Virus record (IMG/VR): IMGVR_UViG_3300050019_000092
Location: 1 to 62,680 of that record
Origin: a virus
DNA length: 62,680 nucleotides
Strand: one strand, 5' to 3'
The notes below the pieces were generated by a model, which worked only from the letters and a program-made list of their open reading frames with translations, was not told where the DNA came from and did not search any database. Position 1 is the stretch's first letter. Every line of letters begins with the position of its first letter. Shown piece after piece: positions 11,226 through 36,566 of the stretch. The position numbers and the translations under genes were made by a program.

Positions 11226-11483
11226 ATTCCTCTCGTCTCACAAGCACAGGCTCGCTGGGCCTACGCCAATCAGGGCAACAAGACTCGCGAAGGCGCCGCG
11301 GCGCGCGATTTCATCGCTGCCTCGCCCGGTGGTCCTGGCTCCGTCAAGAAACTGCCGAAATTCAAGAAGCCTTCCGTTCGCCGTCCTGGCCCCGGCATGC
11401 CCGGCGCGCAGCCTTTTGGCTCTCTTGCGCCCGGCGACGGCATGGCCGCTCCCGCTCCACCCCCCGATGGAGAGATGCCGTGA
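11226..11483 (+). CDS. Coding-like ORF with no canonical start (possible ATT start after GGAGG); C-terminal region carries PFGSLAPGD
   Basis: The frame is open from 11184. G/C-rich third positions contrast with the Arg-rich shadow frame 11114..11671. The first in-frame ATG is only 28 codons from the stop. Confidence 0.35.
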   Translation: MPLVSQAQARWAYANQGNKTREGAAARDFIAASPGGPGSVKKLPKFKKPSVRRPGPGMPGAQPFGSLAPGDGMAAPAPPPDGEMP

Positions 11484-12093: not shown

Positions 12094-12105
12094 AGGGCTG
12101 ACCGC

Positions 12106-12971: not shown

Positions 12972-13282
12972 GCAGGATGGTCTTTGCTCTCGCCGATTTG
13001 CAGCATGAGATTGCCAGCATCGCGCTCAGTTCACCCCACCCACTGCGGGAAATGACGCTTGTGCTGACGGACGATGATTACGATGCAGTAGCTAAGGAAA
13101 TCTCCAACCATTTCGGGCGCACATGCGGGGCTGGTGGTACCATGCTGGTCGAAGGCGTAACGATTATGCGAGGAAGCCATGCTCGAGGACGGCCAAACGA
13201 TCGATCTGGATCAGGTGCGCAAGACGACGGCCTACCAGAAGCGCAAGAAGCAATGGAAAGACCGCAGTTGGCGGCTCGATAA
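12968..13282 (+). CDS. Hypothetical protein (104 aa), 3' end overlaps terL
   Basis: ORF track entry with a GTGA overlap start. Confidence 0.45.
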   Translation: MSRMVFALADLQHEIASIALSSPHPLREMTLVLTDDDYDAVAKEISNHFGRTCGAGGTMLVEGVTIMRGSHARGRPNDRSGSGAQDDGLPEAQEAMERPQLAAR

Positions 13283-14738
13283 TTTCTATTTCATCCGGAG
13301 CGAGAAGGGCGAGCGGATTCCTTTCGCCCGCAATCCTGCACAGCTTGCCTTCTCTCGCGCACTTTGGTCCCGCAATATTATTCCGAAGGCCCGCAAACTC
13401 GGGTTCTCGACTTTCATTGAGTTATTGATTTGCGATGCCTGTGTTTTTAAGGGCGGCACGGTCGCAGGCATTGTAGATCGCTCGCTTGATGATGCGGTCG
13501 ATAAACTCGGGATGATCGCATATGGGTACGATAATCTACCCGAGGAAATCCGCACAAACATCCAACTCACGCGGCGCAATGACAAATATCTGGAATGGTC
13601 GAATGGCTCCAATGTGAGCGTCGGAACGTCCTATCGTGGTGGCACGCCATCGATCCTGCATGTGAGCGAATATGGAAAGATAAGCGTGGACTCGCCGGAG
13701 GCCGCGGTCGAAATCAAAACAGGCGCAATCACCGCTGTACCAATGAGCGGCCAAGTATTTGTTGAGAGCACGTGGCACGGCACTGGCGGTGAATTCTCGA
13801 AGATGACGATGGCTGCCAAGGCGCTACGGGATCGCGGAGCAACTCTCACCGAACTAGATTTTAAGTTTCATTTCTACGGTTGGTGGATGAAGCCAGAATA
13901 TCGGCTTCCGAATAACCTTGTGATTGTCACCCAAGAAATGCAGGAATATTTCCGTGATCTTCAGGCCACGAACGGCATCCTGCTCGATGCTGATCAGATG
14001 GCTTGGTACCAGAATCGATATAGCGACCTCGGGCTCGACAAAACTCACGAGGAGTTTCCATCGACGCCAGAAGAGCTATTTCTTACCTCAAATGAGGGGG
14101 CGTTCTTCAAGCGCGAATTGTCGAAGGCGCGGCAAGAGGGCCGGATTGGGCAGTTAATGCCGTTCGATCCCACTCGGCGGGTCAATACGTTCTGGGATAT
14201 TGGCGAGGATACGACGGCTATTTGGTGGCATCAGACGGATGGTGTTCGTCATCGGCTGATCGACTATTACGAAGAGGAAGGCTGGTCGCTGCAAGGCGCT
14301 TGCGCGATGATCGATGAGAAGCGGCGAACCCGGAAATTTGTTTATGACAAGCACTACGGCCCGCACGATATGGGCAACAAGGATTGGGGCAATAACGCGC
14401 AGACCCGCAAGCAGACAGCGAAGGGGCTCGGGGTTGATATCTCTGTGGTCGAGCGCATTACCGAGAAGGCGGATGCGATTGAGGCTTGTCGGCGCTTTAT
14501 CAATAACTCTTGGTTTGATGCAGAACACTGTTCGCTTGGGGTGGAACGGCTCGAAAACTACCGTAAAAAGTGGAACAAGGCGATTGGGGTTTACACCTCT
14601 GAGCCAGAACACGATCCCGCGAGTCATGGAAGCGATGCCCTAATGTGTGGCGCCTGCGGTCTGGTGCCTGAAAAAGTAAAATCCGAGGATCGTTCGCGCC
14701 GGCCGCAGGAACAAAGGACAACGCAATGGGCGTCATGA
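13179..14738 (+). CDS. terL: Terminase large subunit
   Basis: Carries the ATPase motif IIPKARKLGFSTF and a C-terminal nuclease-type region. A GAGGAAG SD is present. Size is 519 aa. Confidence 0.85.
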   Translation: MLEDGQTIDLDQVRKTTAYQKRKKQWKDRSWRLDNFYFIRSEKGERIPFARNPAQLAFSRALWSRNIIPKARKLGFSTFIELLICDACVFKGGTVAGIVDRSLDDAVDKLGMIAYGYDNLPEEIRTNIQLTRRNDKYLEWSNGSNVSVGTSYRGGTPSILHVSEYGKISVDSPEAAVEIKTGAITAVPMSGQVFVESTWHGTGGEFSKMTMAAKALRDRGATLTELDFKFHFYGWWMKPEYRLPNNLVIVTQEMQEYFRDLQATNGILLDADQMAWYQNRYSDLGLDKTHEEFPSTPEELFLTSNEGAFFKRELSKARQEGRIGQLMPFDPTRRVNTFWDIGEDTTAIWWHQTDGVRHRLIDYYEEEGWSLQGACAMIDEKRRTRKFVYDKHYGPHDMGNKDWGNNAQTRKQTAKGLGVDISVVERITEKADAIEACRRFINNSWFDAEHCSLGVERLENYRKKWNKAIGVYTSEPEHDPASHGSDALMCGACGLVPEKVKSEDRSRRPQEQRTTQWAS

Positions 14739-16138: not shown

Positions 16139-16726
16139 ATGAATGGACTTCATCTCACGGACCCTGTTCTTAGCGAGCGCGCTAAGTATGACGAGATATG
16201 GGGGCACGAGGAGTACCACAAATTCTCTCCCGGCCTAGAGAATGTAGAGCGGTTCATCGGTGTGATGGAGCCTGTCGCAGGTTCATCGTTGATCGATATT
16301 GGATGCGGAGCCGGTGTCGCCGGCATCCAGTTTGAGCGCGTCGGATTCAGGGTCACATATCTGGATTTGAGCGACGCTGGCCTAGATCCGAAGGTCAACC
16401 GCAAGCATTTTATTCAACACGAGTTGTGGAGCGATAAATGGCCGCTGCACAACAAGCGCGGCTGGGACTATGGATTTTGTTGCGACGTGATGGAGCATCT
16501 ACCAACAGAGTACACGATGCTCTCGCTTGATCGAATCATCAAGGCGTGTCGCGTGTCGTGGTTTCAGATTGCTCACTGTCACGACACTTACGGACAGTTG
16601 ATAGGATCTCCATTGCATTTGACTGTGCAGCCGTTCGCGTGGTGGCGCGACAGGATCGCCGCCCTAGGAAATCTCGTGGAGGCCCGCGACCTGTGTGGCT
16701 CCGGATTGTTCGTGGTGCAGCGATGA
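16139..16726 (+). CDS. Class I SAM-dependent methyltransferase
   Basis: Carries motif I LIDIGCGAGVAG, motif II YLDLS and FCCDVMEHLP. Confidence 0.8.
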   Translation: MNGLHLTDPVLSERAKYDEIWGHEEYHKFSPGLENVERFIGVMEPVAGSSLIDIGCGAGVAGIQFERVGFRVTYLDLSDAGLDPKVNRKHFIQHELWSDKWPLHNKRGWDYGFCCDVMEHLPTEYTMLSLDRIIKACRVSWFQIAHCHDTYGQLIGSPLHLTVQPFAWWRDRIAALGNLVEARDLCGSGLFVVQR

Positions 16727-22221: not shown

Positions 22222-24567
22222 ATGGCTCTCGGCACCACCGAGCAAATTGATACGCCTCCCGATGATGGTCTGACCATTGATGGGCAGGTGGGCTTGCCGG
22301 ATGACGCGCCGGCCAATGCGGTGCTTTCCATCAGCGCACTGCCGGTCGGCAAGCAGTTCGATGTGCTCAAAGCCCTGCATCGCGCAGATGCCGAGCATAC
22401 GAAGGATTGGCGGGCCCATGCCGAGGAGTGGTTCTTGTTCCGCGCTGGCGAGCAATGGACCGCGGAAGACCGCGCGCTTCTGAATAGCCAGCAACGCCCG
22501 CATATCGTTTTTAACCGCGTCCTGACCATCCTCAAGGCGGTGGCGGGCATGGAAATCAACGGGCGGCACGAGATTACTTTCATTCCCAGAGGTACGCAGG
22601 ACACCGCCGTTAATGAGGTGCTTTCCTCGGCCTCGAAATGGATGGCCGATGAGTGCGACGGCGAGGACGAGGAAAGTTCGGCGTTCGATGACACCTGCAC
22701 CTGCGGCATGGGCTGGGTCGAGAATCGGATGTCCTATGAGGACGATCCGGCCGGCCTCTACATCGAGGACTGCATCGATCCGCGCGAGATGTATTGGGAT
22801 CGGACATCATCCAAAAAGAACCTTTCTAATGCGCGCCGGCTCTCGCGCGTACGCCGCATGCCGCTCTCCGACGGGCTTGCTCTTTTCCCCGGCAAAACGG
22901 TGGAGCAACTGGACGCCACCTGGGCCGATCAGGGCGTCTCGGATTATCCGAAGAAGACGATCGAGGAAAAGCGCAAGCGCGATGCCGACAATTCGTCGAT
23001 GCAGGAATATGACGATCATTGCGAGGTGACTATCGTCCAGATGCAGTGGTTCGAGCGCGAGACCTATTGGATCGTCGCCGACGTGCAGACCAATACCAAG
23101 GCCGAGCTCTCGGACGCAGAATATCAGCGTTTTGTCTCGCGCATGAAGGTGCTCGGCATGCCGGTGCATGCCGCCAAGATGATGCGCAAGGTCTACAAGC
23201 AGGCTTGGCTCGGTGGGGAATTGCTCGAGAAGGCGGGACCGGCGCCGATCAAAGGGAAATTCTCTTGGGACTGCATCACCGGCGAATTCGACAAGGTCAA
23301 AAAGGAATGGTTTGGCCTCGTCAAGGTGATGCGCGATCCGCAGATGTGGGCGAACAAATGGCTGTCGCAGATCCTGCACATACTGAACACGACCGCGAAG
23401 GGTGGCATCCTGGCGGAGACCTCGGCATTCGATGATCAGCGTGAAGCCGAGGAGGGTTACGCTCGACCGGATACGGTGACTTGGCTCGCCGATGGTGCGC
23501 TTTCGGGCGACAAGCCGAAGCTGATGGCAAAGCCCGGCGCTGGCATGACCGAGGGCTATCTCGGGTTGATGACCTTTGCCATTTCGTCGATCAAGGACGT
23601 CACCGGTATCAATCTCGAATTGCTCGGGCAGCAGGACCAGAACCAGCCAGGCATTATCGAGGCCATGCGCAAGCAGGCCGGTATGACGGTGCTCGCCACG
23701 CTGTTCGATTCTTTGCGGCGCTTCCGTAAGAACGTTGGTCGTTCGCGATTGTATTTCATTCAGAACTTTCTCTCCGATGGTCGCCTGATACGGGTGGCGA
23801 AGCCTGACAATGTGCAGGCGGTCGCGCTGGCGAAGGAGAAAACAACCGGGCTCTATAGCGTGGTCGTGGATGATACGCCGACCTCGCCGAACCAGAAGGA
23901 GGCGAATTGGGCAATCATCCAGCCTCTGCTCGCGGTATTCAAAGACCAGCTTATGGCAAATCCGCAGGTGTTTGCGATGCTGCTAGAATACTCGCCGCTG
24001 CCCAATCGCATCGTTGAGGCGATCAAGGCGTTCATTACCAAGCAGCAGCAGGATCCCACGGCTATGCAAGATCAGCAGCTTATGAAGCATCTCACGGTGC
24101 AAAAGGCTGTTTCCGAAATCTCGAAGAACCAGTCGATTGCCGAGATGAATAACAAGAAGGCGGGCGCCACCGAGGCGACAGCCATGTACGACATTGCTCT
24201 GGCTCGCAAAATGCTGGCCGATAGCGACCACGCTGGCCTCGACCAGCATCTGAAATTGATGGAGGCGGCTGCCAATGCCAAGCAGGCGGCGGCTAATGCA
24301 GACAAGACGGTGGTGCAGACCCATCGCGAGGCCGCTGGCATTCAGAACGATCAACTCGAAACCCATGCCAAGGTCATCAGTGCCGCGACCGATGCGCATA
24401 AAACGGTCGCGGATAGTCATTCAGCGCGGATGGGTGCTTTGATCGATCATCTTGGCGCTGTGGGTGGTCTGCATCGTGATATGGCGGCTGCGCGCAAGGA
24501 CCATGCCGCGGCCGCCTTGACCGATCGCACGCCCGCACCGGCCCCGGCGGCTCCTGGTGGGCCGTGA
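22222..24567 (+). CDS. Portal protein
   Basis: Size is 781 aa. It has the hallmark FRAGEQWTAEDRALLNSQQRPHIVFNRV and a long helical C-terminal barrel-like tail. Confidence 0.85.
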   Translation: MALGTTEQIDTPPDDGLTIDGQVGLPDDAPANAVLSISALPVGKQFDVLKALHRADAEHTKDWRAHAEEWFLFRAGEQWTAEDRALLNSQQRPHIVFNRVLTILKAVAGMEINGRHEITFIPRGTQDTAVNEVLSSASKWMADECDGEDEESSAFDDTCTCGMGWVENRMSYEDDPAGLYIEDCIDPREMYWDRTSSKKNLSNARRLSRVRRMPLSDGLALFPGKTVEQLDATWADQGVSDYPKKTIEEKRKRDADNSSMQEYDDHCEVTIVQMQWFERETYWIVADVQTNTKAELSDAEYQRFVSRMKVLGMPVHAAKMMRKVYKQAWLGGELLEKAGPAPIKGKFSWDCITGEFDKVKKEWFGLVKVMRDPQMWANKWLSQILHILNTTAKGGILAETSAFDDQREAEEGYARPDTVTWLADGALSGDKPKLMAKPGAGMTEGYLGLMTFAISSIKDVTGINLELLGQQDQNQPGIIEAMRKQAGMTVLATLFDSLRRFRKNVGRSRLYFIQNFLSDGRLIRVAKPDNVQAVALAKEKTTGLYSVVVDDTPTSPNQKEANWAIIQPLLAVFKDQLMANPQVFAMLLEYSPLPNRIVEAIKAFITKQQQDPTAMQDQQLMKHLTVQKAVSEISKNQSIAEMNNKKAGATEATAMYDIALARKMLADSDHAGLDQHLKLMEAAANAKQAAANADKTVVQTHREAAGIQNDQLETHAKVISAATDAHKTVADSHSARMGALIDHLGAVGGLHRDMAAARKDHAAAALTDRTPAPAPAAPGGP

Positions 24568-24911
24568 TCCATGCTCGCCCGCAGTTGATGCGTCTGCTGC
24601 AGGGGCTATTCGAGACACACCTGCGCGGGCTATATCGCTGGGGAGAAGTCGAGTTTCATGTCTCCGAAGAGGCGGAAAAGTTACCCGGCAAGAGCCGAAA
24701 CGCTTTCGGAAAGTTCAAGGAGATAGTATCTATCCGCTTTGGCGATTATGACCTGACGGTCGAATCTCCGAATGAGCAACCGCCCCTCGGGCGCCTGACG
24801 CTGACCGGTCCGGCCGGGATGATCGAGGAGCATTCTCTGGATTCGTCTGTGATTGATCGAATTGGTAAGATGATCCGTTCCCAACAGGAGGAGTTGATTC
24901 CCAATGGCTAA
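24564..24911 (+). CDS. Hypothetical protein (115 aa)
   Basis: GTGA overlap with the portal stop. Confidence 0.55.
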   Translation: MIHARPQLMRLLQGLFETHLRGLYRWGEVEFHVSEEAEKLPGKSRNAFGKFKEIVSIRFGDYDLTVESPNEQPPLGRLTLTGPAGMIEEHSLDSSVIDRIGKMIRSQQEELIPNG

Positions 24912-26121
24912 TACCGCGCAAGCCCTGCCAGCCGCTGATGCGGGGCAGGTCGACGACGGATTTACCGACGAAGAACGCACCCAATTTGCTGAACTGGAGA
25001 AGGCCACCTCGGATCCCGCTCCAACGCCCGAACCTACCCCAGCCCCCACTCCAGCCCCCGCGCCGGTGCCTGCCGCTACCGATGGGGACGACGATGAGGA
25101 CGAAGAGGAAGCCGCTGCGGCCCCCGCTGGTGGCGCCGCGGCCGCTGACGGGGCTCCCGGTGCCCCCCCTGTGGCTGGCGCGCCTGGCGAGCCCCCTGCC
25201 CCCGGCACGGTGGTTCCTAAACGTCGAGTATCTGCCCGCAAATACGAACGGGCCGAGGAAGCCCGCAAGGTCGCGGAAACCGAGCGCGATACGCTTCGTC
25301 AAAACCAAGCCCGGCTCGATGAGCGCATGCGGATCATCAATGAGGCGCTGGCTGCACCGGCCCAGCCTGTCAAAACGGCAGCCGAGGAAGATCCCGAGCC
25401 AGATGCCGAAAAGGACGTCTTTGCCTGGATTGCCTGGAAGAAGCGCGACGATGTACGGGTGCGCGAGGAAATAGCCGAATTGCGCACCGGTCGGCAGGCC
25501 GAAGTCGAAGATACCACCTTGGCCAATACCTACACCGAGGACGCGCGTTCGTTTGCGGCTTCGGAGCCCAATTTTGTTCCGGCCTATCAGTTCTTGATGG
25601 CGAACCGGACTTTCGAACTCGCGCAGTATTTCTTTGGCAAGGATTTGACCGAGCAGGGCGTCCAATTGACGACCGAAGAGCTTGGTAAAATCCGGGCGAC
25701 CATCGGCAACGAGGAAAAGCAACTAGCCTCCGAGGCGATCACGATGAAACAGTCGCCCGCCAAGCGAGTTTTTGCTCTCGCCAAAGCGCGCGGCTTCCGT
25801 CCGGGCGCCGCGGCCGCTGCTCCTGCTGCGGTTCCCGGCTCTGCCCCGGGAACCAATGGCGCCGGCGCACCGGCTGCTGCTGCTCCTGCGGCGGCCGGTG
25901 CTCCTGGCAGCATTGCCGCGCCTGCGGCGGCTCCTAGCGTCGTGGCTGAGATTGCCAATATCAAGGCGGGTTCTGAGGCTGCCCGCTCGCTATCTAGCGG
26001 TGGCGGTGCGCCTCCGAATCCACTGACGCCAGAAAAGCTCGCCAATATGTCGGAAGAGGAATTCGGCGCGTTGGTCGATGGCCTATCGCCGTCGGAGGCA
26101 AAGGAATTATTCGGCACCTGA
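24904..26121 (+). CDS. Putative scaffolding protein
   Basis: It lies between portal and capsid genes, and the protein is acidic, P/A-rich and helical. Confidence 0.6.
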   Translation: MANTAQALPAADAGQVDDGFTDEERTQFAELEKATSDPAPTPEPTPAPTPAPAPVPAATDGDDDEDEEEAAAAPAGGAAAADGAPGAPPVAGAPGEPPAPGTVVPKRRVSARKYERAEEARKVAETERDTLRQNQARLDERMRIINEALAAPAQPVKTAAEEDPEPDAEKDVFAWIAWKKRDDVRVREEIAELRTGRQAEVEDTTLANTYTEDARSFAASEPNFVPAYQFLMANRTFELAQYFFGKDLTEQGVQLTTEELGKIRATIGNEEKQLASEAITMKQSPAKRVFALAKARGFRPGAAAAAPAAVPGSAPGTNGAGAPAAAAPAAAGAPGSIAAPAAAPSVVAEIANIKAGSEAARSLSSGGGAPPNPLTPEKLANMSEEEFGALVDGLSPSEAKELFGT

Positions 26122-26371: not shown

Positions 26372-27490
26372 ATGGCTATGACCAGCTTTGGCGTCAATGA
26401 CGCGCTCGCCATCAAACTGTGGTCCAAGCGACTCGACCACGAAGCTCTCAAATACACCGATATCGGGCCGTTGATCGGCGACGATCCGGACTCGATCATC
26501 CACCGGAAGACCGAGACTCAAAAGGGACCCGGCGATCAGGTGACCTACGCCATTCGCATGCAATTGAGCGGCGCCGGCTTTAGCGAGAACCAACTCGCGG
26601 AAGGCAACGGCGAATCGCTCGCCACCTATTCGGATAAGCTGCTCATCAACGAGCTCGGCCATGTGGTCGGCGTTAAGTCCGAGTACACGATCGACCAGCA
26701 GCGCGTTCCGTTCGATCTGCGCGAAGAGGCCAAGAGTGGCCTTGCCGATTGGTACGCCAAGCGCTTCTCCGTCGCCTTCTTCAATCAGGTGTGCGGTAAT
26801 ACGCTCGCCACCGATACCCGCTTTACCGGCCTGAATGCAACGATCGCGCCCTCAGCGACGCGCATCATTCGCCAATCCAGCCGCGCGTCCGACGATCTGC
26901 TCGTCGCCGGCGACACCTTCACCCTCAATCTGGTTGATAAGGCGAAGGAGTTGGCGGTCACCGCCACTCCTAAGATCAGGCCGGCGCGGTTTGCCGGCGG
27001 ATCGAGCGGCGGCAGCATGTCGCCGGCGCGCAGGGATTACAACAAGACGCTGACCGACAAATACGTGATGTATCTGCATCCGTATCAGGTCACCGATTTG
27101 CGCACCAATACGTCGACCGGCCAGTGGCTGGATCTGACCAAGGCCGCGGATATGGGGCGGGGTGAAAAGGGCGCGATCTATACTGGCGCCATCGGCGAAT
27201 ACAATTCGGTCATTTTGCGGCAGTCCTTCGACGTCGCCAATGGCATCTCCGCTGGCGGCGCGCTGGTGGCGAATACCTACCGCGCCGTTCTGCTCGGCGG
27301 GCAGGCATGCATGATCGCCTTCGGCCAGAAGAACTCGCAGACAAAGTACCGGTGGAACGAGGAAATGTTCGACCACAAGCGCCGGCTCGAAGTCTCGGCG
27401 TGGACGATCCATGGTCTGAAGAAGACCGTCTACAATTCGGTCGACTACGGCACCGTCGTGGTTTCGACCTACGGCGCAGCGCACACCTAA
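26372..27490 (+). CDS. Major capsid protein (N4-gp56-like family)
   Basis: The N-terminus NDALAIKLWSKRL..EALKYT...GDQVTY...L.G.G is typical of this capsid family, recalled from memory. Size and position fit. Confidence 0.8.
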   Translation: MAMTSFGVNDALAIKLWSKRLDHEALKYTDIGPLIGDDPDSIIHRKTETQKGPGDQVTYAIRMQLSGAGFSENQLAEGNGESLATYSDKLLINELGHVVGVKSEYTIDQQRVPFDLREEAKSGLADWYAKRFSVAFFNQVCGNTLATDTRFTGLNATIAPSATRIIRQSSRASDDLLVAGDTFTLNLVDKAKELAVTATPKIRPARFAGGSSGGSMSPARRDYNKTLTDKYVMYLHPYQVTDLRTNTSTGQWLDLTKAADMGRGEKGAIYTGAIGEYNSVILRQSFDVANGISAGGALVANTYRAVLLGGQACMIAFGQKNSQTKYRWNEEMFDHKRRLEVSAWTIHGLKKTVYNSVDYGTVVVSTYGAAHT

Positions 27491-27966: not shown

Positions 27967-28383
27967 ATGATGAAGCACTTCCGCCTTGGCGCCTTGGTCG
28001 CCGCTTGCTTGGCGTTATCGCTCCCGGCCTTTGCCCTCGATCTGTCTCTGGACGGCTCGTTGCGCGGCAACTGCGGAACGGTCGCTTCGACCGGCAACGG
28101 CACGGCCGACACAGCGACGCTGAACAACAAATGCGGCGTGGTGACCACGGAGTCGCTGACCGCTCCGACCGCTTCCGAATTCACCTTGACGCTCACCAAT
28201 TCAGCGATCGCGGCGGCGGATATCCCGCTGGTGACCATCAGCAATGGCACCAACACCTCCGGCCTGGTGGCACTTGAGCGCGCGACGGTAACGGCCAGCA
28301 CCTTGACCGTTGTGGTGCGCCAGATGAGCACCGCCAGCCTGAACGGCACTCTGAAGGTCAACTACTTCATCATCAAGCCCTGA
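27967..28383 (+). CDS. Secreted protein, paralog A (Sec signal peptide)
   Basis: Signal peptide MMKHFRLGALVAACLALSLPAFA/LD. Shares TATLN..G.V.TT....LTLTNS.I...GT..... IK with 28425..28901. Confidence 0.65.
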   Translation: MMKHFRLGALVAACLALSLPAFALDLSLDGSLRGNCGTVASTGNGTADTATLNNKCGVVTTESLTAPTASEFTLTLTNSAIAAADIPLVTISNGTNTSGLVALERATVTASTLTVVVRQMSTASLNGTLKVNYFIIKP

Positions 28384-28424: not shown

Positions 28425-28901
28425 ATGAAGATGCTCCGACGCTCCGGTATCGCTGCACTGGCGATCCTTGCCTTGGTGACCGCCGCTTGGGCCATCCAGC
28501 CGGGAACCAGCGGAACCGACAAGAGACTCCAGCAATCCGGTGAGCGCAGCGGCGTTCTGATCCAGGTTAACAACACGGCGACGTCGGTTGGCGCGCAAAC
28601 TGGAACAGCCACACTTAACGCGGCCGGGTCCGGCGTGATTACGACGCCGTCGATTGCCATTACGGCGGATTCCGAATATGCGCTGACGCTGACCAACAGC
28701 ATGATTGAGGCAGGCGATGTTGTCTTGGCTTCGGCTAATCTCGGGAGTTCGGCGGTAGGCTCGATCTATGTGGCGGAAGTCAAGCCAGCGGCTGGCTCCG
28801 TCTTGATCAGGGTTCGGAATGCTTCGGGTGCCACGACACTAGCCGGCACCATTCAGATCAGGTTCCTTGTCATCAAACAGAGCGCGCTAGGGTCCGACTA
28901 A
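28425..28901 (+). CDS. Secreted protein, paralog B (Sec signal peptide)
   Basis: Signal peptide MKMLRRSGIAALAILALVTAAWA/IQ. Paralogous to 27967..28383. Confidence 0.65.
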   Translation: MKMLRRSGIAALAILALVTAAWAIQPGTSGTDKRLQQSGERSGVLIQVNNTATSVGAQTGTATLNAAGSGVITTPSIAITADSEYALTLTNSMIEAGDVVLASANLGSSAVGSIYVAEVKPAAGSVLIRVRNASGATTLAGTIQIRFLVIKQSALGSD

Positions 28902-28925: not shown

Positions 28926-29621
28926 ATGGCCGGCGACCTAGCAACGATGATCAGCAGAATCGCGTCAGAGATCACGCGACCTGATCTCGCTGCGACTCAA
29001 ATTCCCAATGCCATTAATGATGCGATTTCGGCCTATCAGTCCGAGCGCTTTACGTTTTCCGAAGTGCCTGCGGACGGCACACAGACCTTCAATACGGTGG
29101 CCGGGCAGGCCTATTACACCAAGGCGGACAATCCAAATCTCGGCACGCTGCTGAAGATCGACCGCGTCAATATCAATATTGGCACGGCGACCATTATGCA
29201 GTTGAAGCGCGAGGATCCCGAGACGCTGATTCTCTACAATCAGCAGGCCGGCACCATGGTCGGGCAGCCGTCCTGGTACGCCTATGAGAATGGTCAGATG
29301 ATCATCTCGGCCATTCCGGATAAGGCCTATTTGATCACGCTCGGGCTGTTCTTGAATGTTCCGGCTCCGGCGACGAATACGGAAGTAGGCAATCCATGGA
29401 TGACCACGGCGGAGAAACTTATTCGCTCGCGTGCCAAGTATGAGATCGCTCTGCATGTGACCCGCAATGAGGCGATGCAGGCGGCAATGTCGCCCGATCC
29501 TGCCTCATCCCCGTTTGTGAACGGCGGACGGGCTGGAGCTTCCTACCGCGAGTGGAAACAGCTTAAGGGCGTTGCCAATCGTTCCACCGCGCGCGGGGTC
29601 ATCCGGCCCATGCAATTCTGA
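28926..29621 (+). CDS. Virion structural protein (possible adaptor or tail-tubular-A-like)
   Basis: Called from position and size only (231 aa). Confidence 0.35.
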   Translation: MAGDLATMISRIASEITRPDLAATQIPNAINDAISAYQSERFTFSEVPADGTQTFNTVAGQAYYTKADNPNLGTLLKIDRVNINIGTATIMQLKREDPETLILYNQQAGTMVGQPSWYAYENGQMIISAIPDKAYLITLGLFLNVPAPATNTEVGNPWMTTAEKLIRSRAKYEIALHVTRNEAMQAAMSPDPASSPFVNGGRAGASYREWKQLKGVANRSTARGVIRPMQF

Positions 29622-29628
29622 GGGGCCC

Positions 29629-31842
29629 ATGGCGCAGCCCTTCGGTTCCCTTTCCCCTGGCGACAACGACCCGAACGGCCTTATGGGCTCGGGTTATGGC
29701 TCCGATGTGCCCCTGCTTGATGTGGAGACCGCTCGGCGCCTTGCGGCTGGCGTGGCCGGCAGTTGGCCTGGCCGCATGCTTTCCGACGCTGCAGCGGCGC
29801 TTAAAACGGTGGGGGACGGGGGCTATCAACCAGGCCTGCGGCGCGAGGATGTGACCGATATCCCGCCTCCCTCTGAGCCGACTGCCGATTCGACCATTCT
29901 CGGGCGGGCGCTCAAAATGGCTCCGGTCGGCTGGGAGCCGAACGATAAGTATATTCAGGCGTCGACCGATCTTGCTGCCACGGTGGCCGGTATCGGGGCT
30001 CCGGCGGCTGAGAAGGGCGCGCTGGGAGCGGCCGGGGGGCGCATGCCCGCGGCTCCGGCCGCCGCCAGCGCCGCCGAGACGGTGGCACCTCCGTTCTATT
30101 CGGCGGTTGAGAAGGCGGTGACCGATAGCCCGCTGAACAAGTCGGTCGGCCAGCAATGGCTCGGCACCATCAAGAACACGCCGGGCGTGAAACCGGACGA
30201 GATCAGTGCGCTTGGTCTGGACAAGTTCCTCACCGATCAAAAGGGGGCGGTGACCAAGCAGGACGTACTCGACCACATTGCGGCAAACAAAGTGCAGGTC
30301 GGGGAGGTCGATAAGGGTGGTGCTGGGCCAATTGATTACAGCAATTATCATGGGCGATCTGTTGCAGAAATTGATCAAGACATGGACGCTAATGCCGCTT
30401 TGGCATTTGGTGATAACCCTGAATTTAAAGATCGACCGGATTTACTTGCTAGGCACGAAGAATTGCAGACTGAGAGAAACGCTGCCAGAAATGCGGCAGA
30501 CAATTGGCAGCCAGAATATCCAGAAACAAAATTCGGCACTTACGTCCTCCCCGGCGGCGAGAACTACCGGGAGAAGCTGCTGACGCTGCCGGAGACGCCA
30601 AGTAAATTTGATCCGTCGCAAGTCGAGATTAAGCGGAATATGCAGAGCACAACACAAGGAAGCACCTCGATTTGGTACGGTGGAAAAAAGGTTGCGACGT
30701 ACAGCGACGACCCGGCACTGCAGCCGGGTGGAAGTTACGACCAGAGGCCACAGTCCTATTGGATGGGTGTTGCCCAAAAACTTTATGACAAAGGAGACCA
30801 GATAAACAAAATCCCGTCTCGGTCAGAGAATTTCACATCCTCCCACTGGGACGAGCCTAACGTGCTGGCACATATCCGGATGAATGACCGGATGATTCCG
30901 AATGTCGAAGGCGGGGCAGATAAATCTCTGCACCTCGAGGAAATCCAGAGCGATTGGCATCAGAAGGGACGCGCGAGCGGGTATCAGAATCCAAACCCAA
31001 CGTATTCTCTCGAAGGTAATGGGCCTTGGACTATCAGGGATCAGAACAACCGTTTTATTTCAGATTTTAATAACCGAGATACAGCGCAGACCCATCTAGA
31101 TGATCTAAATGCCGGTCGAGTGAAAGCGGATCAGGTCGGCGTCCCCGACGCTCCCTTTAAGACCACATGGCCCGAACTCGCCTTTAAGCGCGCGCTGCGT
31201 GATGCTGCGGAGGGTGGTTATGATCGGCTGTCGTGGACGCCCGGTGAGGCGCAGGCGGCGCGGTATGATTTGAGCAAGCAGATATCTAGGCTCCAATGGG
31301 AGAAAAGTGGCACCAGCGGATTCACGCCGCTTGACGCCATTGAGCACCGCGTGGAGGGCGTGCCAGTGCGCGGCACGATCCGTGCATTCGATCACAGTGG
31401 GCGCGAGGTGATCAATAAAATAGCAACCGAGGATGAATTGCCGGACATCATCGGAAAGGACACTGCGCAAAAATTGCTCGACCAACAGCCTCAGTCAGGC
31501 CGCAACGCTGGAACTGCTCTGAGCATGCGCAAGTTGGAGGGTGTTGATCTCAAAGTCGGCGGCGAGGGCATGAAGGGATTCTATGACCAGATGCTGCCGA
31601 AGATGGCGAACAAGTTGGTTAAGCCGTTCGGGTCGAAGGTGGAGCAGGTCAATATGGATATTGGTGCCGGGAAACCTGCTGATATGCGAAATGCTCTCGA
31701 CACGACGCAGGTTCATTCTTTGAAGATCACCCCCGAACTCCGCAAGGCGGCGATGACCAAGGGATTCCCGCTGTTCTCTGCTGGTGCTGTGGCCGCTCCG
31801 GTATTTGGCTCAATGGCACCGGGAAGTGATACAGGTCAGTAA
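29629..31842 (+). CDS. Large virion/ejection-type protein with a polyvalent-protein-like module; PFGS motif at both termini
   Basis: The N-terminus is MAQPFGSLSPGD and the C-terminus is VFGSMAPGSDTGQ. An internal block reads SHWDEPNVLAHIRMNDR...LHLEEIQSDWHQKG...PFKTTWPELAFKRAL. Confidence 0.6.
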   Translation: MAQPFGSLSPGDNDPNGLMGSGYGSDVPLLDVETARRLAAGVAGSWPGRMLSDAAAALKTVGDGGYQPGLRREDVTDIPPPSEPTADSTILGRALKMAPVGWEPNDKYIQASTDLAATVAGIGAPAAEKGALGAAGGRMPAAPAAASAAETVAPPFYSAVEKAVTDSPLNKSVGQQWLGTIKNTPGVKPDEISALGLDKFLTDQKGAVTKQDVLDHIAANKVQVGEVDKGGAGPIDYSNYHGRSVAEIDQDMDANAALAFGDNPEFKDRPDLLARHEELQTERNAARNAADNWQPEYPETKFGTYVLPGGENYREKLLTLPETPSKFDPSQVEIKRNMQSTTQGSTSIWYGGKKVATYSDDPALQPGGSYDQRPQSYWMGVAQKLYDKGDQINKIPSRSENFTSSHWDEPNVLAHIRMNDRMIPNVEGGADKSLHLEEIQSDWHQKGRASGYQNPNPTYSLEGNGPWTIRDQNNRFISDFNNRDTAQTHLDDLNAGRVKADQVGVPDAPFKTTWPELAFKRALRDAAEGGYDRLSWTPGEAQAARYDLSKQISRLQWEKSGTSGFTPLDAIEHRVEGVPVRGTIRAFDHSGREVINKIATEDELPDIIGKDTAQKLLDQQPQSGRNAGTALSMRKLEGVDLKVGGEGMKGFYDQMLPKMANKLVKPFGSKVEQVNMDIGAGKPADMRNALDTTQVHSLKITPELRKAAMTKGFPLFSAGAVAAPVFGSMAPGSDTGQ

Positions 31843-33581
31843 TGGCAAAGCGCCCGACCATTCCGTTTCCTGATTTCGCGCCGGATTTAAGCGATCTCGG
31901 CACCGGTGTTTCTCAGAACGTCATGGGCGTTACCCCACGCGGTGACGGCTATGGGCCGTTTCAATCGCTTGTAGACTTTACGCAGGCACTGCCTGCCGCC
32001 TGCCGCGGCTATTTCTTCGCCCGCAATCCAGATGGCTCGATCTCGGTGTTCGCGGGTACGGCGACCAAGCTCTACCTTCTCGACAACACGACTTTTGCGT
32101 GGACCGATGTGTCGAAGGGGGCGGGGTCTTATTCGGTGCTAGTGACCACTTCTAATTGGCAATTTGCGCAGTTCAATTCGACCGTTATCGCGGTGCAGAT
32201 TAATACAGTGCCGCAGTCCTTCGTGCTCGGCTCATCGTCTGCATTTGCCGATCTCGGCGGCTCGCCACCGCAGGCCGGCAATATCGCGGTGATCAATTTT
32301 TTCCTGGTGCTCACTGGCCTGCTGTCGAATCCCAATCGCGTGCATTGGTGCGATCTCGACGGCATTACGACTTGGACCGCGGGCGTGGGGCTGGCCGACT
32401 TTCAGGATCTGCCCGATGGCGGCAATTGTCACGGCATCTCGGGCGGCGATGCATTTGGCCTGCTGTTTCAGGATTCCTCGATCCGCAGTCTGATCTATGC
32501 GCCGGGATCCGGCGTGGTGTTCGATATCGTGCGCGTCTCGACGGCGGAATCATTGTTCGCTAATTATTCCATCATCAATGCTGGCGAGAAGACGTTCTAT
32601 TGCTCCTCGCAGGGATTCAAGATGATTTCTCCTGGCGGGGTGCCACAGCCGATCGGCAAGGAGCGCGTCGATCGCTGGTTCTTCGCCAATGTGGACAATT
32701 CAGCGCTGCAGTTAGTGATTGGCGCCACTGATCCGACGGCAACGCGCGTCTATTGGGCATTCAAGTCGCTGGCGGGTGCGGCTGGTCTATTCGATCTCAT
32801 TCTGTGCTTTGACTGGTCGATCGGCGAAAAGGGGAAATGGAGCGTGATCCCATGCTCGGGGCAATATCTCGCCAATCTGGCGCGGCCGGGGCTCACGCTG
32901 CATCAATTGGATGCCATTGCTCCCGGCGCGCTCTCTGTGACGGGGGCGGCGGATAATGGCGCGGGCCTGATCCGGCTCACGTTGAGTGCGGAATCAAATG
33001 CATTTTTTACCATTGTCGGTCAGAACTTCATCGTCGTGCAGGGTGTGACCGGGACCACCGAAGCGAACGGGGTTTGGCACTTCAATATCATTAGTCCGAC
33101 CACTATCGATCTGACTACCAATGAAGACGGTGTATCGTCGGCTTTCGTGAATGCCTATGTCAATGGTGGCGCCATCGGTGGATCGCTCGCTGCCCTGCCA
33201 TTCTCGCTCGATAGCATTGCGCAGGGGGCCACCGCTCGGCTGTCGGCATTCTCTAGTGCGGCCAAGGCTGGATTCTTCGATGGTGCCAATATCGAGGCGG
33301 TGATCGAGACCGACGAGCAGGATACTGGCGGCGATCTGATCTTCATTACTGCCGTGCGGCCTCTTACCGACGCCACCACGGCGCTGATCTCGATCGGCTC
33401 CCGGCTCAATGCGCAGGCGGCCATTGCCTATAGTGCCGAGTCCTCACTCACTCCGCAGGGCGATTGCCCGCAATTGGTCGAGGCCCGCTATGCTCGAGCC
33501 AAGCTGCGGATTCCTGCGGCTTCGGTCTGGTCGTATGCGCGCGCGGTGCAGCCTGAGTCGGTCCTGGCGGGCGACACATGA
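31842..33581 (+). CDS. Virion structural protein (possible beta-propeller tail tubular/nozzle protein)
   Basis: Size is 579 aa and the sequence is a repetitive beta-strand type. Called from position. Confidence 0.4.
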   Translation: MAKRPTIPFPDFAPDLSDLGTGVSQNVMGVTPRGDGYGPFQSLVDFTQALPAACRGYFFARNPDGSISVFAGTATKLYLLDNTTFAWTDVSKGAGSYSVLVTTSNWQFAQFNSTVIAVQINTVPQSFVLGSSSAFADLGGSPPQAGNIAVINFFLVLTGLLSNPNRVHWCDLDGITTWTAGVGLADFQDLPDGGNCHGISGGDAFGLLFQDSSIRSLIYAPGSGVVFDIVRVSTAESLFANYSIINAGEKTFYCSSQGFKMISPGGVPQPIGKERVDRWFFANVDNSALQLVIGATDPTATRVYWAFKSLAGAAGLFDLILCFDWSIGEKGKWSVIPCSGQYLANLARPGLTLHQLDAIAPGALSVTGAADNGAGLIRLTLSAESNAFFTIVGQNFIVVQGVTGTTEANGVWHFNIISPTTIDLTTNEDGVSSAFVNAYVNGGAIGGSLAALPFSLDSIAQGATARLSAFSSAAKAGFFDGANIEAVIETDEQDTGGDLIFITAVRPLTDATTALISIGSRLNAQAAIAYSAESSLTPQGDCPQLVEARYARAKLRIPAASVWSYARAVQPESVLAGDT

Positions 33582-34018
33582 GCGATCAAATCCCTTTTGG
33601 CTCGATGGCACCTTCTCTTGCTGGACAACAGCCGCCTGCCAATTTTGCGACCTCCTTAAATCCATTGGATGAGATGGCTTATCGTCAATGGGTAGCGGAC
33701 AATAATGTGCCAACCGATCCTACTGCATCTGGTCCACAGGATTACGACATGCGTGGATTCTATCGCGCCTTAATGCAGCAGAATCCGCGTGCGCAATCCG
33801 CCATCGATCCCAATGACAACAAGATGCACTACCCTGATTTTTGGAAAACGCCGTCTCACGAGACATTCTCAAATGAGAGTCAATGGGCGACGCCAAATAC
33901 TCCGGCATGGACGGCCGATGATAAACTCGCGGCACCCAGCGGCCGCGTGATTTATGATGATAAAAATAGACTGCCACCATTTGGTCTTGCTCTTAGAAAC
34001 ATGGGGATCATCAAGTGA
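33578..34018 (+). CDS. Hypothetical virion protein with N-terminal PFGSMAP motif
   Basis: Begins MSDQIPFGSMAPSLAGQ. ATGA overlap with the upstream gene. Confidence 0.6.
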   Translation: MSDQIPFGSMAPSLAGQQPPANFATSLNPLDEMAYRQWVADNNVPTDPTASGPQDYDMRGFYRALMQQNPRAQSAIDPNDNKMHYPDFWKTPSHETFSNESQWATPNTPAWTADDKLAAPSGRVIYDDKNRLPPFGLALRNMGIIK

Positions 34019-34329
34019 GTGGCATTACCCTTTCATTCTCTGAGACACGCATTCCCCGCATCGTGCAGGCGATCCGGCAGCTTTACGAGGGGCGCGTTAA
34101 CTCTGGCGGGACTGTCACGCTGCGCAATGGGCAAACTACCACGGTGGTCAGTGCTCCGAATTGCAGCCCTTCATGCAATGTTTTTCTGACGCCTCAGACG
34201 CCTCACGCTGTAGCAATGGCACCGCAGCCATATGTGGCAAAAGCCGATATTCTGCTCGGATCATTCACAATTTCACATAATAATCCGGGTGTTTCGGATG
34301 CGAATTTTGCGTGGGACGCGCGCGGATAG
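34015..34329 (+). CDS. Hypothetical protein (104 aa)
   Basis: GTGA overlap start. Confidence 0.55.
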   Translation: MSGITLSFSETRIPRIVQAIRQLYEGRVNSGGTVTLRNGQTTTVVSAPNCSPSCNVFLTPQTPHAVAMAPQPYVAKADILLGSFTISHNNPGVSDANFAWDARG

Positions 34330-34330
34330 C

Positions 34331-34759
34331 ATGAACATCCATTCTCCACCTCCGCATTCGTTGCTCTGCGTCGACCCCAAGCGCATCATGGAGTTCTGGC
34401 CGCTGGTGCGCGACTTGATCGATGAAGGCTATGCGCACAGCGGTGAGATTGCCCCGGTCGATCTGCCGCAATGGCTTTCGGACGGCAAAGGCCAGCTTTG
34501 GCTTTCGGTGGAGGCTGGCGAGATCGTCGCCGCATTGACAACGTCGATCGTTCCGATGAGAAACGGACTCGTGCTGCGAATGATTACCTGCGGTGGCAGT
34601 CGGCTCGATCTCTGGAAGGATTGCCACCGGCAAATTGAGGAATTCGCGCGGGCCGAGGGATGTGATAGGATTCGCAGCGAAGGTCGACCTGGCTGGACTC
34701 GCGTACTTGCCGGCGGTGGCTATAAGGTCGTAGCGGTCACCTTGGAGAAAAGGCTCTAA
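34331..34759 (+). CDS. Hypothetical protein, possibly GNAT-like fold (142 aa)
   Basis: Internal ATG of ORF 34232..34759. There is only weak resemblance to an acetyltransferase beta-alpha core (EIVAALTTSI...LRMITCGG). Confidence 0.35.
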   Translation: MNIHSPPPHSLLCVDPKRIMEFWPLVRDLIDEGYAHSGEIAPVDLPQWLSDGKGQLWLSVEAGEIVAALTTSIVPMRNGLVLRMITCGGSRLDLWKDCHRQIEEFARAEGCDRIRSEGRPGWTRVLAGGGYKVVAVTLEKRL

Positions 34760-34761
34760 AA

Positions 34762-35670
34762 ATGGGCGGCAATAGTCCCCAGACAACTCAGCAAACGCAG
34801 AACAGCGTCTCCTCGCCTTGGACGGCAGCCCAACCGTTGCTGACGAGTCTTCTTGGTTCCTATGGTGATCAAAGCACTGCGGTGACGCCGGCGCAGACTG
34901 CGGCCATGGCGCAGTTAACCGGTGACACCAGCGCCATTCCAAATCAGGGCGCAGCCGCTTCCGGGGCAGTGGGGAGTGCGCTTAATTTCAACACGACGCC
35001 GCAGGTAGGCATGTTGAGTAATTCTCTGAACAGTTTGCAGACCAATCTCAATCCGACAGCTTCCGGCGCGAATCTCGATCCATATTCGACGCCTGGATTC
35101 TCCGATGCTCTCAAGACGATGACGCAGGATACCACAAACGCGGTGAAGGGGGTTTATGCTGGCTCGGGGCGCGATCCGTCCGGCGCTGGCTCATTTGCTC
35201 AATCGCTCGGCCGCGGCATTACGCAGGGCGAGGCTCCAGTCATAGCGAGCCAAGCCAATCAGAATATTGCGAACATGATGGGCGCGAACAGCACGCTATT
35301 CAACGCTGGCAATACGGCCGCCATCGGCGAGGCCGGGCTCGGTGCCACCGGTGCTGGCGTCAATCTCGCTGGCGTGAATGCAGCGCCTGGTGCCGCTACT
35401 GCCTATTCCGCGCCGGGATCGACGGCATTGGGATCCGCGAATGCGGCCTATCAGACGCCATGGACGAATCTTGCTTCGCTGCTCACCCCTGCGGCCACCA
35501 TCGGTTCGCTCGGTGGTCAGACGAATGCCTCGGGAACTTCGACCACAACGCCTGCAAATAATATGTTCTCGAATATTCTTGGCGGCGTTGCTGGTGGTGC
35601 CGGTCTGCTCAGCGCATCTGGGGCTGGCGGCTCTGCCGGATGGTTGGCCCCTATGCTGGCTGGGTTGTAA
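34762..35670 (+). CDS. Internal virion protein (G/A/S/N-rich, 302 aa)
   Basis: Low-complexity composition typical of ejection proteins, and its position fits. Confidence 0.55.
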   Translation: MGGNSPQTTQQTQNSVSSPWTAAQPLLTSLLGSYGDQSTAVTPAQTAAMAQLTGDTSAIPNQGAAASGAVGSALNFNTTPQVGMLSNSLNSLQTNLNPTASGANLDPYSTPGFSDALKTMTQDTTNAVKGVYAGSGRDPSGAGSFAQSLGRGITQGEAPVIASQANQNIANMMGANSTLFNAGNTAAIGEAGLGATGAGVNLAGVNAAPGAATAYSAPGSTALGSANAAYQTPWTNLASLLTPAATIGSLGGQTNASGTSTTTPANNMFSNILGGVAGGAGLLSASGAGGSAGWLAPMLAGL

Positions 35671-35695
35671 TAGAGAAATCTTGGAATGATTGATT

Positions 35696-36208
35696 ATGGC
35701 TCCATTCGGATCGCTCGCTCCCGGCAGAGATACAGGTCAAAATATCCCTGAATCTCATGAGACGCTGCAGGCGCAACAGAAACAACTGATCGATGGTCGG
35801 AAAGCGGCACAAATGTTCCCGATGAACTCCAGCGAATTGCCATTGCCTTCCGGTATGCACCGTATTGTTACGCCGCGCGGAATTTTTCATTTCAATCCGA
35901 GCAAGGTTTCCCGCCATCACGTTGCCAGGTTGAGTGCGGCAGGGCGCGAGAATGAACTTCTAGGAATGGGACCGTATAGTAAATCCGACATCGCCAATCG
36001 CATGCATGCTGGCGAGCCTATGGTGGCCGTTACGGAACGCAGCCCTGATGGCACTGAGGTGAAGGCTGCGGCCGGAACACCAAGCACAGCTCAATCACAG
36101 ATTTCCGCGTTTCATAAAAGCAAAACGCCGGGCAATGTCATAGGTATCGAGTCGGTTGCTGGTGTGTTATCAAATCGTAAATCTGCGGCAATGAGAAAGG
36201 CATACTAA
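35696..36208 (+). CDS. Hypothetical virion protein with N-terminal PFGSLAPGRDTGQ motif
   Basis: Begins MAPFGSLAPGRDTGQ, nearly identical to the C-terminus of the 29629..31842 product. Confidence 0.6.
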   Translation: MAPFGSLAPGRDTGQNIPESHETLQAQQKQLIDGRKAAQMFPMNSSELPLPSGMHRIVTPRGIFHFNPSKVSRHHVARLSAAGRENELLGMGPYSKSDIANRMHAGEPMVAVTERSPDGTEVKAAAGTPSTAQSQISAFHKSKTPGNVIGIESVAGVLSNRKSAAMRKAY

Positions 36209-36209: not shown

Positions 36210-36566
36210 ATGGTCGGCTCTCCGCTCATGAACATGAACACATCCCTTCTGCCGCAGCAGAACAACGGTCAGATGGGCATGGCTATATTGCAGGCCGCGC
36301 TCAAGGCAGGCGCTCCGGGTGCTGGCGGCGGTACCCCTCCCGTCCCTGGCGACCCTTCCGCTCAGCAGCCCCTCTCGCTGGCGCCGCCAAATCCGGGCCC
36401 AGGTAATGGATTGCTTTCGAAGATATTTGGCGGTGGCCAGCCAACTCCACCGACGCCTCCGATCGATCCGAATACCGGCCTGCCTGTGACGCCGGATGTG
36501 ATGGCTGGTGCGGCGGGTATGGGCGGGGCTGGGCCATCGCCGACGGCGCTGACCGGTCTATGGTGA
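36210..36566 (+). CDS. Proline/glycine-rich small virion protein
   Basis: ORF track entry. Contains PLSLAPPNP. Confidence 0.55.
   Translation: MVGSPLMNMNTSLLPQQNNGQMGMAILQAALKAGAPGAGGGTPPVPGDPSAQQPLSLAPPNPGPGNGLLSKIFGGGQPTPPTPPIDPNTGLPVTPDVMAGAAGMGGAGPSPTALTGLW

Follow-up and report, generated by a model that had tools for sequence, protein, structure and literature searches.

Why should one short peptide recur at the ends of otherwise different proteins encoded by a single virus? This question is raised by the IMG/VR virus record IMGVR_UViG_3300050019_000092, whose full stretch of 62,680 nucleotides (nt), termed the window here, belongs to a podophage. The peptide PFGS[LM][AS]PG, often extended to ..PGxDTGQ, was identified in five places of the window (copies A to E, Table 1), and three of the genes that bear it stand among those for the head-tail adaptor, the nozzle and the ejection proteins. 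The explanation favoured here, with moderate confidence, is that the peptide works as a modular docking tag at protein termini, by which accessory cargo proteins are drawn into the procapsid or into the complex of ejection proteins, in a phage that has no recognisable prohead protease.

A six-frame search of the window for FGS[LM][AS]P located the motif in frame at positions 29641, 31804, 33596, 35705 and 11415. All five in-frame copies listed in an earlier sequence-only reading of this DNA were thereby recovered, with the first of its intervals starting 6 nt late (MAQPFGSLSPGD occupies 29629-29664). Four of the five copies are situated no more than 12 residues from a protein end. By chance, 0.0047 matches would be expected in the 18,165-amino acid (aa) proteome and 0.03 in six frames. 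The called genes contained four matches, all terminal, against 0.0005 terminal matches expected from the composition of the proteome. A test independent of the motif was provided by an all-against-all comparison of terminal 20-mers (n=152, the first and last 20 residues of 76 proteins), in which the six pairs formed by the four tagged termini were exactly the six best of 11,476 pairs, with scores of 32-36. Recurrence of the motif is beyond chance.

The copies had also been described as differing in their codons, and this holds: across eight codons and ten copy pairs, 17 comparisons were identical, 45 differed synonymously and 18 differed in the amino acid encoded. Copies D and E, which share PFGSLAPG, use different codons at six of the eight positions. 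As most of the codon differences are synonymous, selection acts at the level of the peptide. The same pattern largely refutes the idea of a DNA- or RNA-level element, or of a non-functional remnant left by recombination of the cassettes (a target-site duplication, for instance), since the copies are identical at only 12-18 of 24 nt with their differences concentrated at synonymous sites. Such an origin would suit the presence of the motif on both sides of the 737-aa cassette, the 11 of 12 identical nt in the DTGQ codons of copies B and D (A/T-ending for D, T and G) and the existence of an antisense copy at 29658-29675. However, no stable RNA structure was found and the peptide is kept in divergent relatives with different codons, making this the least probable of the explanations considered, with very little to be expected of it.

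The antisense copy is a sixth FGSLSP, on the minus strand. At 29655-29678, just after copy A, the reverse complement of the GDNDPNGL codons reads RPFGSLSPG, and the motif is thus present on both strands around an imperfect palindrome. Its candidacy as a hairpin element was rejected, folding being no better than that of shuffled sequences (z=0.47), and because of this lack of a stable hairpin the antisense copy is treated as a coincidence. In the (S/R)DTGQ extension, 13 of 15 nt are the same between copy B (31825-31839, AGT GAT ACA GGT CAG) and copy D (35726-35740, AGA GAT ACA GGT CAA), and in the adjoining FGSxAPG stretch most third codon positions are different. Members of the 170-aa family without FGSLAP likewise have DTG(Q/K/L)NIPES as their conserved N-terminus.

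Comparison with related phages revealed the nature of the genes concerned. The 579-aa nozzle protein was used to recover 31 related loci from IMG/VR (L numbers), and a search of genome contigs with it gave two loci only, one of them L046 from a Pseudolabrys metagenome-assembled genome. Bradyrhizobium/Pseudolabrys-like bacteria are the probable hosts. In the closest relatives, L001, L004 and L005 (nozzle 77-81% identical), all three motif-bearing genes of the adaptor-to-ejection region are absent, the gene order being adaptor, nozzle, 104-aa, 148-aa, ejection protein, 116-aa, 626-aa and 1021-aa. Alignment of the window to L001 and L005 with blastn was collinear save at 29570-31839, 33583-34015 and beyond 35597, with L001 possessing 60 nt in place of the first interval (the adaptor-nozzle junction) and 0 nt in place of the second. 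Collinearity is broken only at the three motif-bearing sites, and the genes are therefore accessory cassettes in fixed slots, which lie between adaptor and nozzle (slot 1), between nozzle and the next gene (slot 2) and between the ejection protein and a small core protein (slot 3).

Other relatives were found to fill these slots with different tagged genes. Slot 1 of L044 holds a 155-aa member of the 146-aa family with the N-terminus MAEFGSLAPE, and that of L046 holds a 101-aa gene product that starts MASLFGSLAP, ends QPVFGSLAVGVIKQRKDQK (QPVFGSLAVG) and in its middle matches residues ~45-82 of the 737-aa protein. In slot 2, L007-L011 have tagged genes whose products measure 134, 556, 646 and 1113 aa and without exception start M(P/A)(G/S)FGS(L/M)AP, and a second tagged gene follows the slot gene among these relatives. 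Tagged proteins fell into at least seven unrelated families once their first 22 residues were removed, and the earlier reading of the peptide as a short linear motif at protein termini is upheld by the terminal-pair test and the codon pattern. The tag goes with the slot and not with the protein. Its persistence in related phages, proposed in the sequence-only reading as a check, was seen in the homologous proteins P0122, P0123 and P0249, in an orthologue in L045 and in the L044 and L046 cargoes. An ATG-anchored degenerate DNA scan of IMG/VR for the tag returned noise only, an unanchored scan for PFGSLAPG returned three loci of which only the L001 contig was real, and Pfam gave no match for any tagged protein.

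Homologues of the 737-aa core (>1000) and of the 146-aa core (273) were collected, and in both families the core is conserved while the ends are hypervariable. Judged by these ends, FGSLAPG is one of several interchangeable classes of terminal peptide. Many 737-aa homologues carry (M/I)G(D/E)LA(R/K)QD.Y at both ends, and others possess a C-terminal PV(D/E)(H/Y)(D/N)PF, sometimes doubled and often with an N-terminal M.xLxELTD.Y. Within this family GxLAxQD was located at both ends in 14 of the 16 proteins having it at an end, a PVDHDPF C-terminus accompanied 22 of 25 LxELTDY N-termini, and GxLAxQD was never paired with PVDHDPF or LxELTDY. In the 146-aa family, PVDHDPF was found at both ends (P0178, P0205, P0230), as were N-terminal FGS(M/I)AP with C-terminal (P/S)FGALFPG (P0174, P0193), EAIAALL with DAIAKLL (P0162) and ALVRALM with PLVQALM (P0137). 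None of four tag classes was present at either end in 36 of 120 homologues of the 737-aa protein and 108 of 120 of the 146-aa protein. Ends assigned to a class, which occurred in about half of the 737-aa homologues and in 12 of 120 of the 146-aa homologues, were of matching or coupled N- and C-terminal types. Members of the 170-aa family are tagged in P0122 and P0123, with the same core lacking FGSLAP in P0124 and P0127. In L042, a 77-aa gene product starting MRDIKMGELAALDRY (MGELAALDRY) is encoded beside a 760-aa cargo with the ends MGELAAQD and MGDLAAQD. The occurrence of the same tag classes on unrelated cores, and of different classes on the same cores, therefore amounts to the behaviour of an address label.

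Double-ended tags were identified in the 737-aa protein, in the 1113-aa protein of L007 (MPGFGSMAP ... SFGSMAREDQ), in the 101-aa protein of L046 and in P0254 (AFGAIGW ... GFGAIGREDD), with the 146-aa protein of the window double-tagged in degenerate form (PPFGLALRNMGIIK). A score of at least 30 between the N- and C-terminus of the same protein was reached by 10% of 737-aa family members, compared with 0.1% of shuffled sequences and 1.8% of non-self pairs; for the 146-aa family the values were 3%, 0% and 0.2%. The cassette nature of the genes, the tag classes and the commonness of double-ended tags all go beyond what had been observed in the sequence-only reading.

An identical peptide at both ends of one protein would also be expected if the tags bound each other, N-tail to C-tail in one protein or across two, and so chained the tagged proteins together with similar core ejection proteins. 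Homotypic binding of this kind would let each lineage drift to its own peptide. Tag-like N-termini are indeed present on orthologues of the small 118-aa core protein in L044 (MDPTTLMSIFGALSPG), L046 (MAMGSLVPG) and L007 (MFGSMMG), and in L049 the cargo has a C-terminal GGLLSMLGIK that is similar to the N-terminus (MGLLDAL..GGGLLDLI) of the large ejection protein encoded next. However, many bearers have a single tag (the 170-aa protein and proteins of L008-L011), 8-mers rich in proline and glycine are poor candidates for stable homotypic pairing, and the likeness between cargo tags and core-protein ends was not significant. Self-association is consequently given a small probability, while being a serious rival.

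AlphaFold models were built on the family alignments. In the 737-aa model the predicted local distance difference test (pLDDT) score was ~33 for residues 1-30 and ~36 for residues 720-737, and in the 146-aa model residues 1-20 scored 45-53, while the core reached ~90 and the final 16 residues ~57. The tags are thus predicted to lie in disordered, low-confidence tails that flank confident cores. The 737-aa protein would start with a disordered N-tail, followed by an N-terminal module of ~100 aa that is conserved, by a large core and by a disordered C-tail, and the 146-aa protein would consist of a conserved core (residues ~21-130) with variable tails. No match was obtained in a sequence search of the PDB with the 737-aa protein, and Foldseek comparison of both models with the PDB gave nothing below E=0.06. 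Residues 45-109 of the 737-aa protein (29761-29955) read WPxxxxR...GLRREDxTDIPxPxxPT.DST.LG..L..APV, a module that recurs N-terminally or internally in 38 representative proteins of 88-2831 aa and is a candidate uncharacterised domain of polyvalent phage proteins.

For the terminal peptide itself, the docking role suggested in the sequence-only reading is still the best explanation, while the role of maturation-protease site offered alongside it has been weakened. Under the latter, a phage or host protease would trim the tails of internal proteins at the motif during maturation. Terminal placement is in keeping with this, as in the capsid-targeting sequence (CTS) of phage T4, and gp7 of P22 is reported to lose an N-terminal leader. 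However, no protease family was matched with Pfam or PHROGs among the ~38 window ORFs (open reading frames) scanned, the portal-to-capsid block included, and cleavage alone leaves unexplained a placement within about 10 residues of an end or at both ends. Neither is the serine kept across tag classes (GDLA, GELA, GALA). Trimming at the motif is for these reasons considered unlikely, more so than self-association.

As a docking tag, the peptide would bind a component of the assembling procapsid interior, the tagged proteins would be co-packaged and later ejected with the DNA, and two tags on one protein would permit bivalent binding. By analogy with P22, which has the same type of portal and no protease, the likeliest partner would be the scaffolding protein or the ejection-protein complex, because the ejection proteins of P22 co-assemble with its scaffolding protein (PMC12005531). 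They dock there on the inner end of the scaffold helix bundle and enter procapsids without the portal (PMC12005531).

The gene context of the bearers points to the virion. In L041 and L043 the gene of the homologue directly follows that of the portal, in L040 it is flanked by the portal and scaffold genes, and elsewhere homologues are encoded among adaptor, nozzle and ejection genes. The core of the 737-aa family corresponds to the C-terminal part of gp34 of the isolated Pelagibacter phage HTVC028P, the gene of which has neighbours annotated 'internal protein A' on one side and 'internal virion protein' on the other. Searches of isolated phages with tblastn gave 3 and 1 distant matches, all annotated as hypothetical and bearing no virion information in their annotations. 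Some 737-aa homologues possess, by accession, Pfam domains of polyvalent proteins (PF18760, PF18823, PF18838), for which packaging and injection have been predicted (Iyer et al. 2017, PMC5512222).

The fifth copy does not fit this context as readily. It lies in an 85-aa basic and proline-rich ORF upstream of the terminase gene and not in the tail and ejection module, a placement on which the earlier reading did not remark. The ORF has no ATG, GTG or TTG start and was hence absent from the program's ORF list, its ATT start (11226) being found 6 nt after GGAGG (11215-11219), with a hairpin and T-run (11186-11214) directly upstream of the latter. It overlaps the next gene by GTGA at 11480 and is probably a real gene with a non-canonical start. 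Its orthologue in L045 retains GAQPFGSLAPG, and an additional 80-aa protein of L045 terminates in KKLGKPFGSLAPSDGDGDE. L045 is on the same contig as L001, which is without the three cassettes.

The region around this ORF has further features. Between 11186 and 11228 a GC-rich hairpin (GCCCCG..CGGGGC) is followed by ATTATTTTT, directly before GGAGG-N6-ATT, and a second hairpin with an identical ATTATTTTT tail was found at 12096-12120, ahead of the gene starting at 12106. This gene (12106-12615, 169 aa) has a G+C content at third codon positions of 0.35, compared with about 0.6 elsewhere, and resembles HNH/AP2-type homing-endonuclease ORFs, which were also identified in the same place in L045 (206 aa) and in the tail region of L001 (169 aa). 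It is probably a mobile endonuclease insertion.

Several points weigh against a docking tag. Tagged proteins also occur outside the tail and ejection module, with genes upstream of that for the terminase: the 85-aa ORF of the window and, in L045, an 80-aa and an 85-aa-like protein. The phage of L045 is tagged although it has none of the three cassettes. The presence of the bearers in virions, like the identity of the receptor, is inferred, the former from gene position and from gp34 of HTVC028P. A conserved ~100-aa module (ERYQxWPEKxVR ... GLRREDxTDIP) common to the 737-aa protein and otherwise different proteins could, in place of the 8-mer, be the packaging determinant of the 737-aa family. 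Furthermore, L041 (GC 38%, P22 coat) and L043 (GC 60%, Phage_capsid_3) both possess PVDHDPF-type tags, yet the portal, capsid and scaffold proteins of the two can hardly be aligned. The idea that the tag strictly co-evolves with any of these three proteins is thus unsupported, and tags do not simply co-evolve with one structural protein. A further proposal, in which the small Pro/Gly-rich core protein of the same phage supplies the N-terminus that the cargo tags imitate, was not significant, as 96 of 720 permutations scored as high (six genomes), and is retained only as a lead; the likeness is suggestive in L044, L046 and L040 and is not significant as a general rule.

Some of these observations would equally be expected of a host-directed short linear motif that binds a conserved host hub protein after ejection or synthesis and has no role in packaging, namely the tagged small proteins outside the tail and ejection module, including those of a relative without cassettes, and the spread of the PVDHDPF type over phages with very different structural proteins. 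However, the genes are nearly always located within structural modules, and L043 and L044, which are alike in GC content and both have P22-type portals, carry different types of tag. No match was recognised to known bacterial hub-binding motifs such as the clamp-binding motif QL[SD]LF, the tip of single-stranded DNA-binding protein (DDDIPF) or TonB/TolB boxes. Host binding is, like self-association, improbable and yet a serious rival.

A broader statement may be put forward more tentatively, and is judged somewhat less probable than the docking role itself: that podophages without a recognised prohead protease load arbitrary accessory proteins for co-injection by means of interchangeable terminal address peptides, with the cargo genes swapped as cassettes at fixed slots. 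The address peptides seen are of the classes FGSLAPG, GxLAxQD.Y, PV[DE]H[DN]PF, LxELTDY and others, often at both ends, and the podophages concerned are that of the window and its relatives, whose portals, so far as they could be identified, are of the P22 or SU10 type. Such a cargo-loading code would be analogous to encapsulin targeting peptides and possibly related to them through a hydrophobic-Gly-Ser-Leu core.

No description of such terminal tags was found in the literature. The T4 CTS is closest by function and the targeting peptides of encapsulins are closest by form, with the tags of the window being members of neither group. The CTS is a short N-terminal peptide on unrelated, non-essential internal proteins (IPI-III, Alt) that directs them into the prohead core, is transferable to foreign proteins, and is removed by the prohead protease gp21 at Leu/Ile-x-Glu. 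It is N-terminal only, whereas three of the five window copies lie 3-6 residues after the initiator methionine and two are C-terminal, and tags may be double-ended. The sequences are unrelated, the window belongs to a podovirus whose portal is of the P22 type, and in the window copies the tag is not followed by an L/I-x-E site. A short terminal segment likewise suffices for procapsid entry in the C-terminal targeting tail of the HK97 protease and in the C-terminal coat-binding peptide of the P22 scaffold, which has been used for cargo loading. Those sequences are also unrelated and each belongs to a single dedicated assembly protein, in contrast to a tag of many accessory proteins. The encapsulation peptides of bacterial microcompartments consist of an ~18-residue amphipathic helix and a linker, whereas FGSLAPG is Pro/Gly-rich and is modelled by AlphaFold as coil; some of the remaining classes in the 146-aa family (EAIAALL, LVRALM) might form helices.

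Encapsulin peptides resemble the tags in being short and terminal, on flexible tails and on unrelated cargo, and they bind the inner face of an HK97-fold shell. The C-terminal cargo peptide HKKKGFTVGSLIQ was described with TVGSLIQ in a groove of the P-domain and N-helix (PMC6668986). A hydrophobic-Gly-Ser-Leu core is common to HKKKGFTVGSLIQ, PFGSLAPG and KKLGKPFGSLAPS of L045, a likeness by sequence of 3-4 residues only. The PVDHDPF and LxELTDY classes are unlike encapsulin peptides, the receptor here may be scaffold rather than capsid protein, and the window genes are located not in an encapsulin operon but among the morphogenesis genes of a phage, which form a complete module (terminase, P22-type portal, capsid, adaptor, tail).

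Polyvalent and MuF-type effectors (Iyer et al. 2017, PMC5512222) are likewise variable, effector-like, encoded among virion genes and predicted to be injected, and in them too a conserved N-terminal module is joined to different cores. Delivery there is by whole domains (MuF, portal fusions, ArdC-N), and a polyvalent protein is defined by at least two recognised effector or associated domains in one polypeptide encoded among virion or conjugation genes. Pfam recognised no domain in the window proteins. The 737-aa protein nevertheless lies among virion genes, has its core in common with proteins that possess PF18760, PF18823 or PF18838, and has an N-terminal module that occurs in proteins of up to 2831 aa. 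Terminal motifs are not mentioned in that paper, as judged by a term search (PMC5512222). MuF/Phage_Mu_F gave no Pfam or PHROGs match in any tagged protein.

A docking role, if true, would supply a sequence rule for predicting injected hypothetical proteins, which would be candidate anti-defence or takeover factors, as well as a handle for engineering phages to deliver chosen proteins and a testable link between the loading of cargo by phages and by encapsulins. To our knowledge, the entry of non-structural proteins into tailed-phage particles is understood for only a few models (among them the T4 CTS, the P1 Dar proteins and the N4 virion RNA polymerase), and we know of no packaging signal for P22-like podophages. 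The presence of matched, lineage-specific N- and C-terminal peptides on two large families (>1000 and ~270 members) suggests a widespread and overlooked phenomenon.

Table 1. Positions in the window of the tag copies, the genes bearing them and the neighbouring genes
Feature	Position	Strand	Details
Tag copy A, PFGSLSPG	29638..29661	+	Residues 4-11 of 737-aa protein (ATG 29629), context MAQ-PFGSLSPG
Tag copy B, VFGSMAPGSDTGQ-stop	31801..31839	+	Final 13 residues of 737-aa protein
Tag copy C, PFGSMAPS	33593..33616	+	Residues 6-13 of 146-aa protein, context MSDQI-PFGSMAPS
Tag copy D, PFGSLAPGRDTGQ	35702..35740	+	Residues 3-15 of 170-aa protein, preceded by MA
Tag copy E, PFGSLAPG	11412..11435	+	16 residues before stop of ORF 11226..11483, context GAQ-PFGSLAPG
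Degenerate C-terminal copy, PPFGLALRNMGIIK	33974..34015	+	Last 14 residues of 146-aa protein
737-aa accessory (cargo) gene	29629..31842	+	Inserted between adaptor and nozzle genes
146-aa accessory gene	33578..34018	+	Exactly between nozzle stop codon and start of next gene
170-aa accessory gene	35696..36208	+	In place of C-terminal 'SDIRAKENI' domain of ejection protein in relatives
85-aa basic/proline-rich ORF	11226..11483	+	Tag near C-terminus; upstream of terminase gene
Terminase large subunit	13179..14738
P22-type portal	22222..24567
405-aa putative scaffold	24904..26121
Phage_capsid_3 capsid protein	26372..27490
Head-tail adaptor gene	28926..29621	+	PF24175 SU10_adaptor, E=1.4e-11; left border of slot 1
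579-aa virion structural (nozzle / tail tubular B-like) gene	31842..33581	+	phrog_3287 virion structural protein, E=2.8e-51; right border of slot 1, left border of slot 2
302-aa ejection protein	34762..35670	+	phrog_4287 DNA ejection protein; left border of slot 3
118-aa Pro/Gly-rich core protein	36210..36566	+	Right border of slot 3

Among the neighbouring genes, those for the portal, a 115-aa ORF, a 405-aa putative scaffold and the capsid are contiguous, and the nozzle gene has the position of 'tail tubular B' in HTVC028P. Farther downstream, large proteins (ejection proteins of 694 and 1069 aa among them), an SLT transglycosylase and a collar-domain fibre are encoded. Comparison of positions 26-42 kb with the INPHARED phages using megablast gave no match. 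Two paralogous small proteins (phrog_18251; 27967-28383 and 28425-28901) with signal-peptide-like N-termini are encoded between the capsid and adaptor genes and have counterparts in relatives, an exported or lipoprotein-like product being odd for a head module.

The 302-aa ejection protein is 69% identical to residues 5-284 of the 363-aa protein of L001. Comparison of the two genes (L001 12484-13575, window 34762-35670) showed that the ejection protein of relatives ends in the 'SDIRAKENI' domain and that the window phage has lost that end. On the L044 and L043 counterparts this domain is Pfam Peptidase_S74, which suggests that the relatives' ejection protein may be a self-cleaving trimer. Large ejection proteins of the group (the 694-aa protein at 36575 of the window, L001 13934, L014 10793, L018 9965, L025 13577, L029 13975 and L049 11368) start M(A/G)(G/L)L(L/F)D..., and F(N/D)P(F/Q/S) repeats often come next. 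This conserved N-terminal peptide may be part of the same docking logic.

A gene of ~140 aa is conserved between the nozzle and ejection genes (window 34331-34759, L001 12035-12481, L044 12521-12952 and gp37 of HTVC028P). It is annotated as a 'putative acetyltransferase' in HTVC028P and has no Pfam match in the window; if it is an N-acetyltransferase, the protein might modify the Ala, Ser or Pro N-termini of internal proteins. Other accessory genes of the window encode a Wzy_C O-antigen-ligase-like membrane protein (9307-10491), an MptE-like protein (16546-17601) and a C5 cytosine methylase (4024-5625, minus strand), the Wzy_C and MptE-like genes recurring near terminase or portal genes in L043 and L050.

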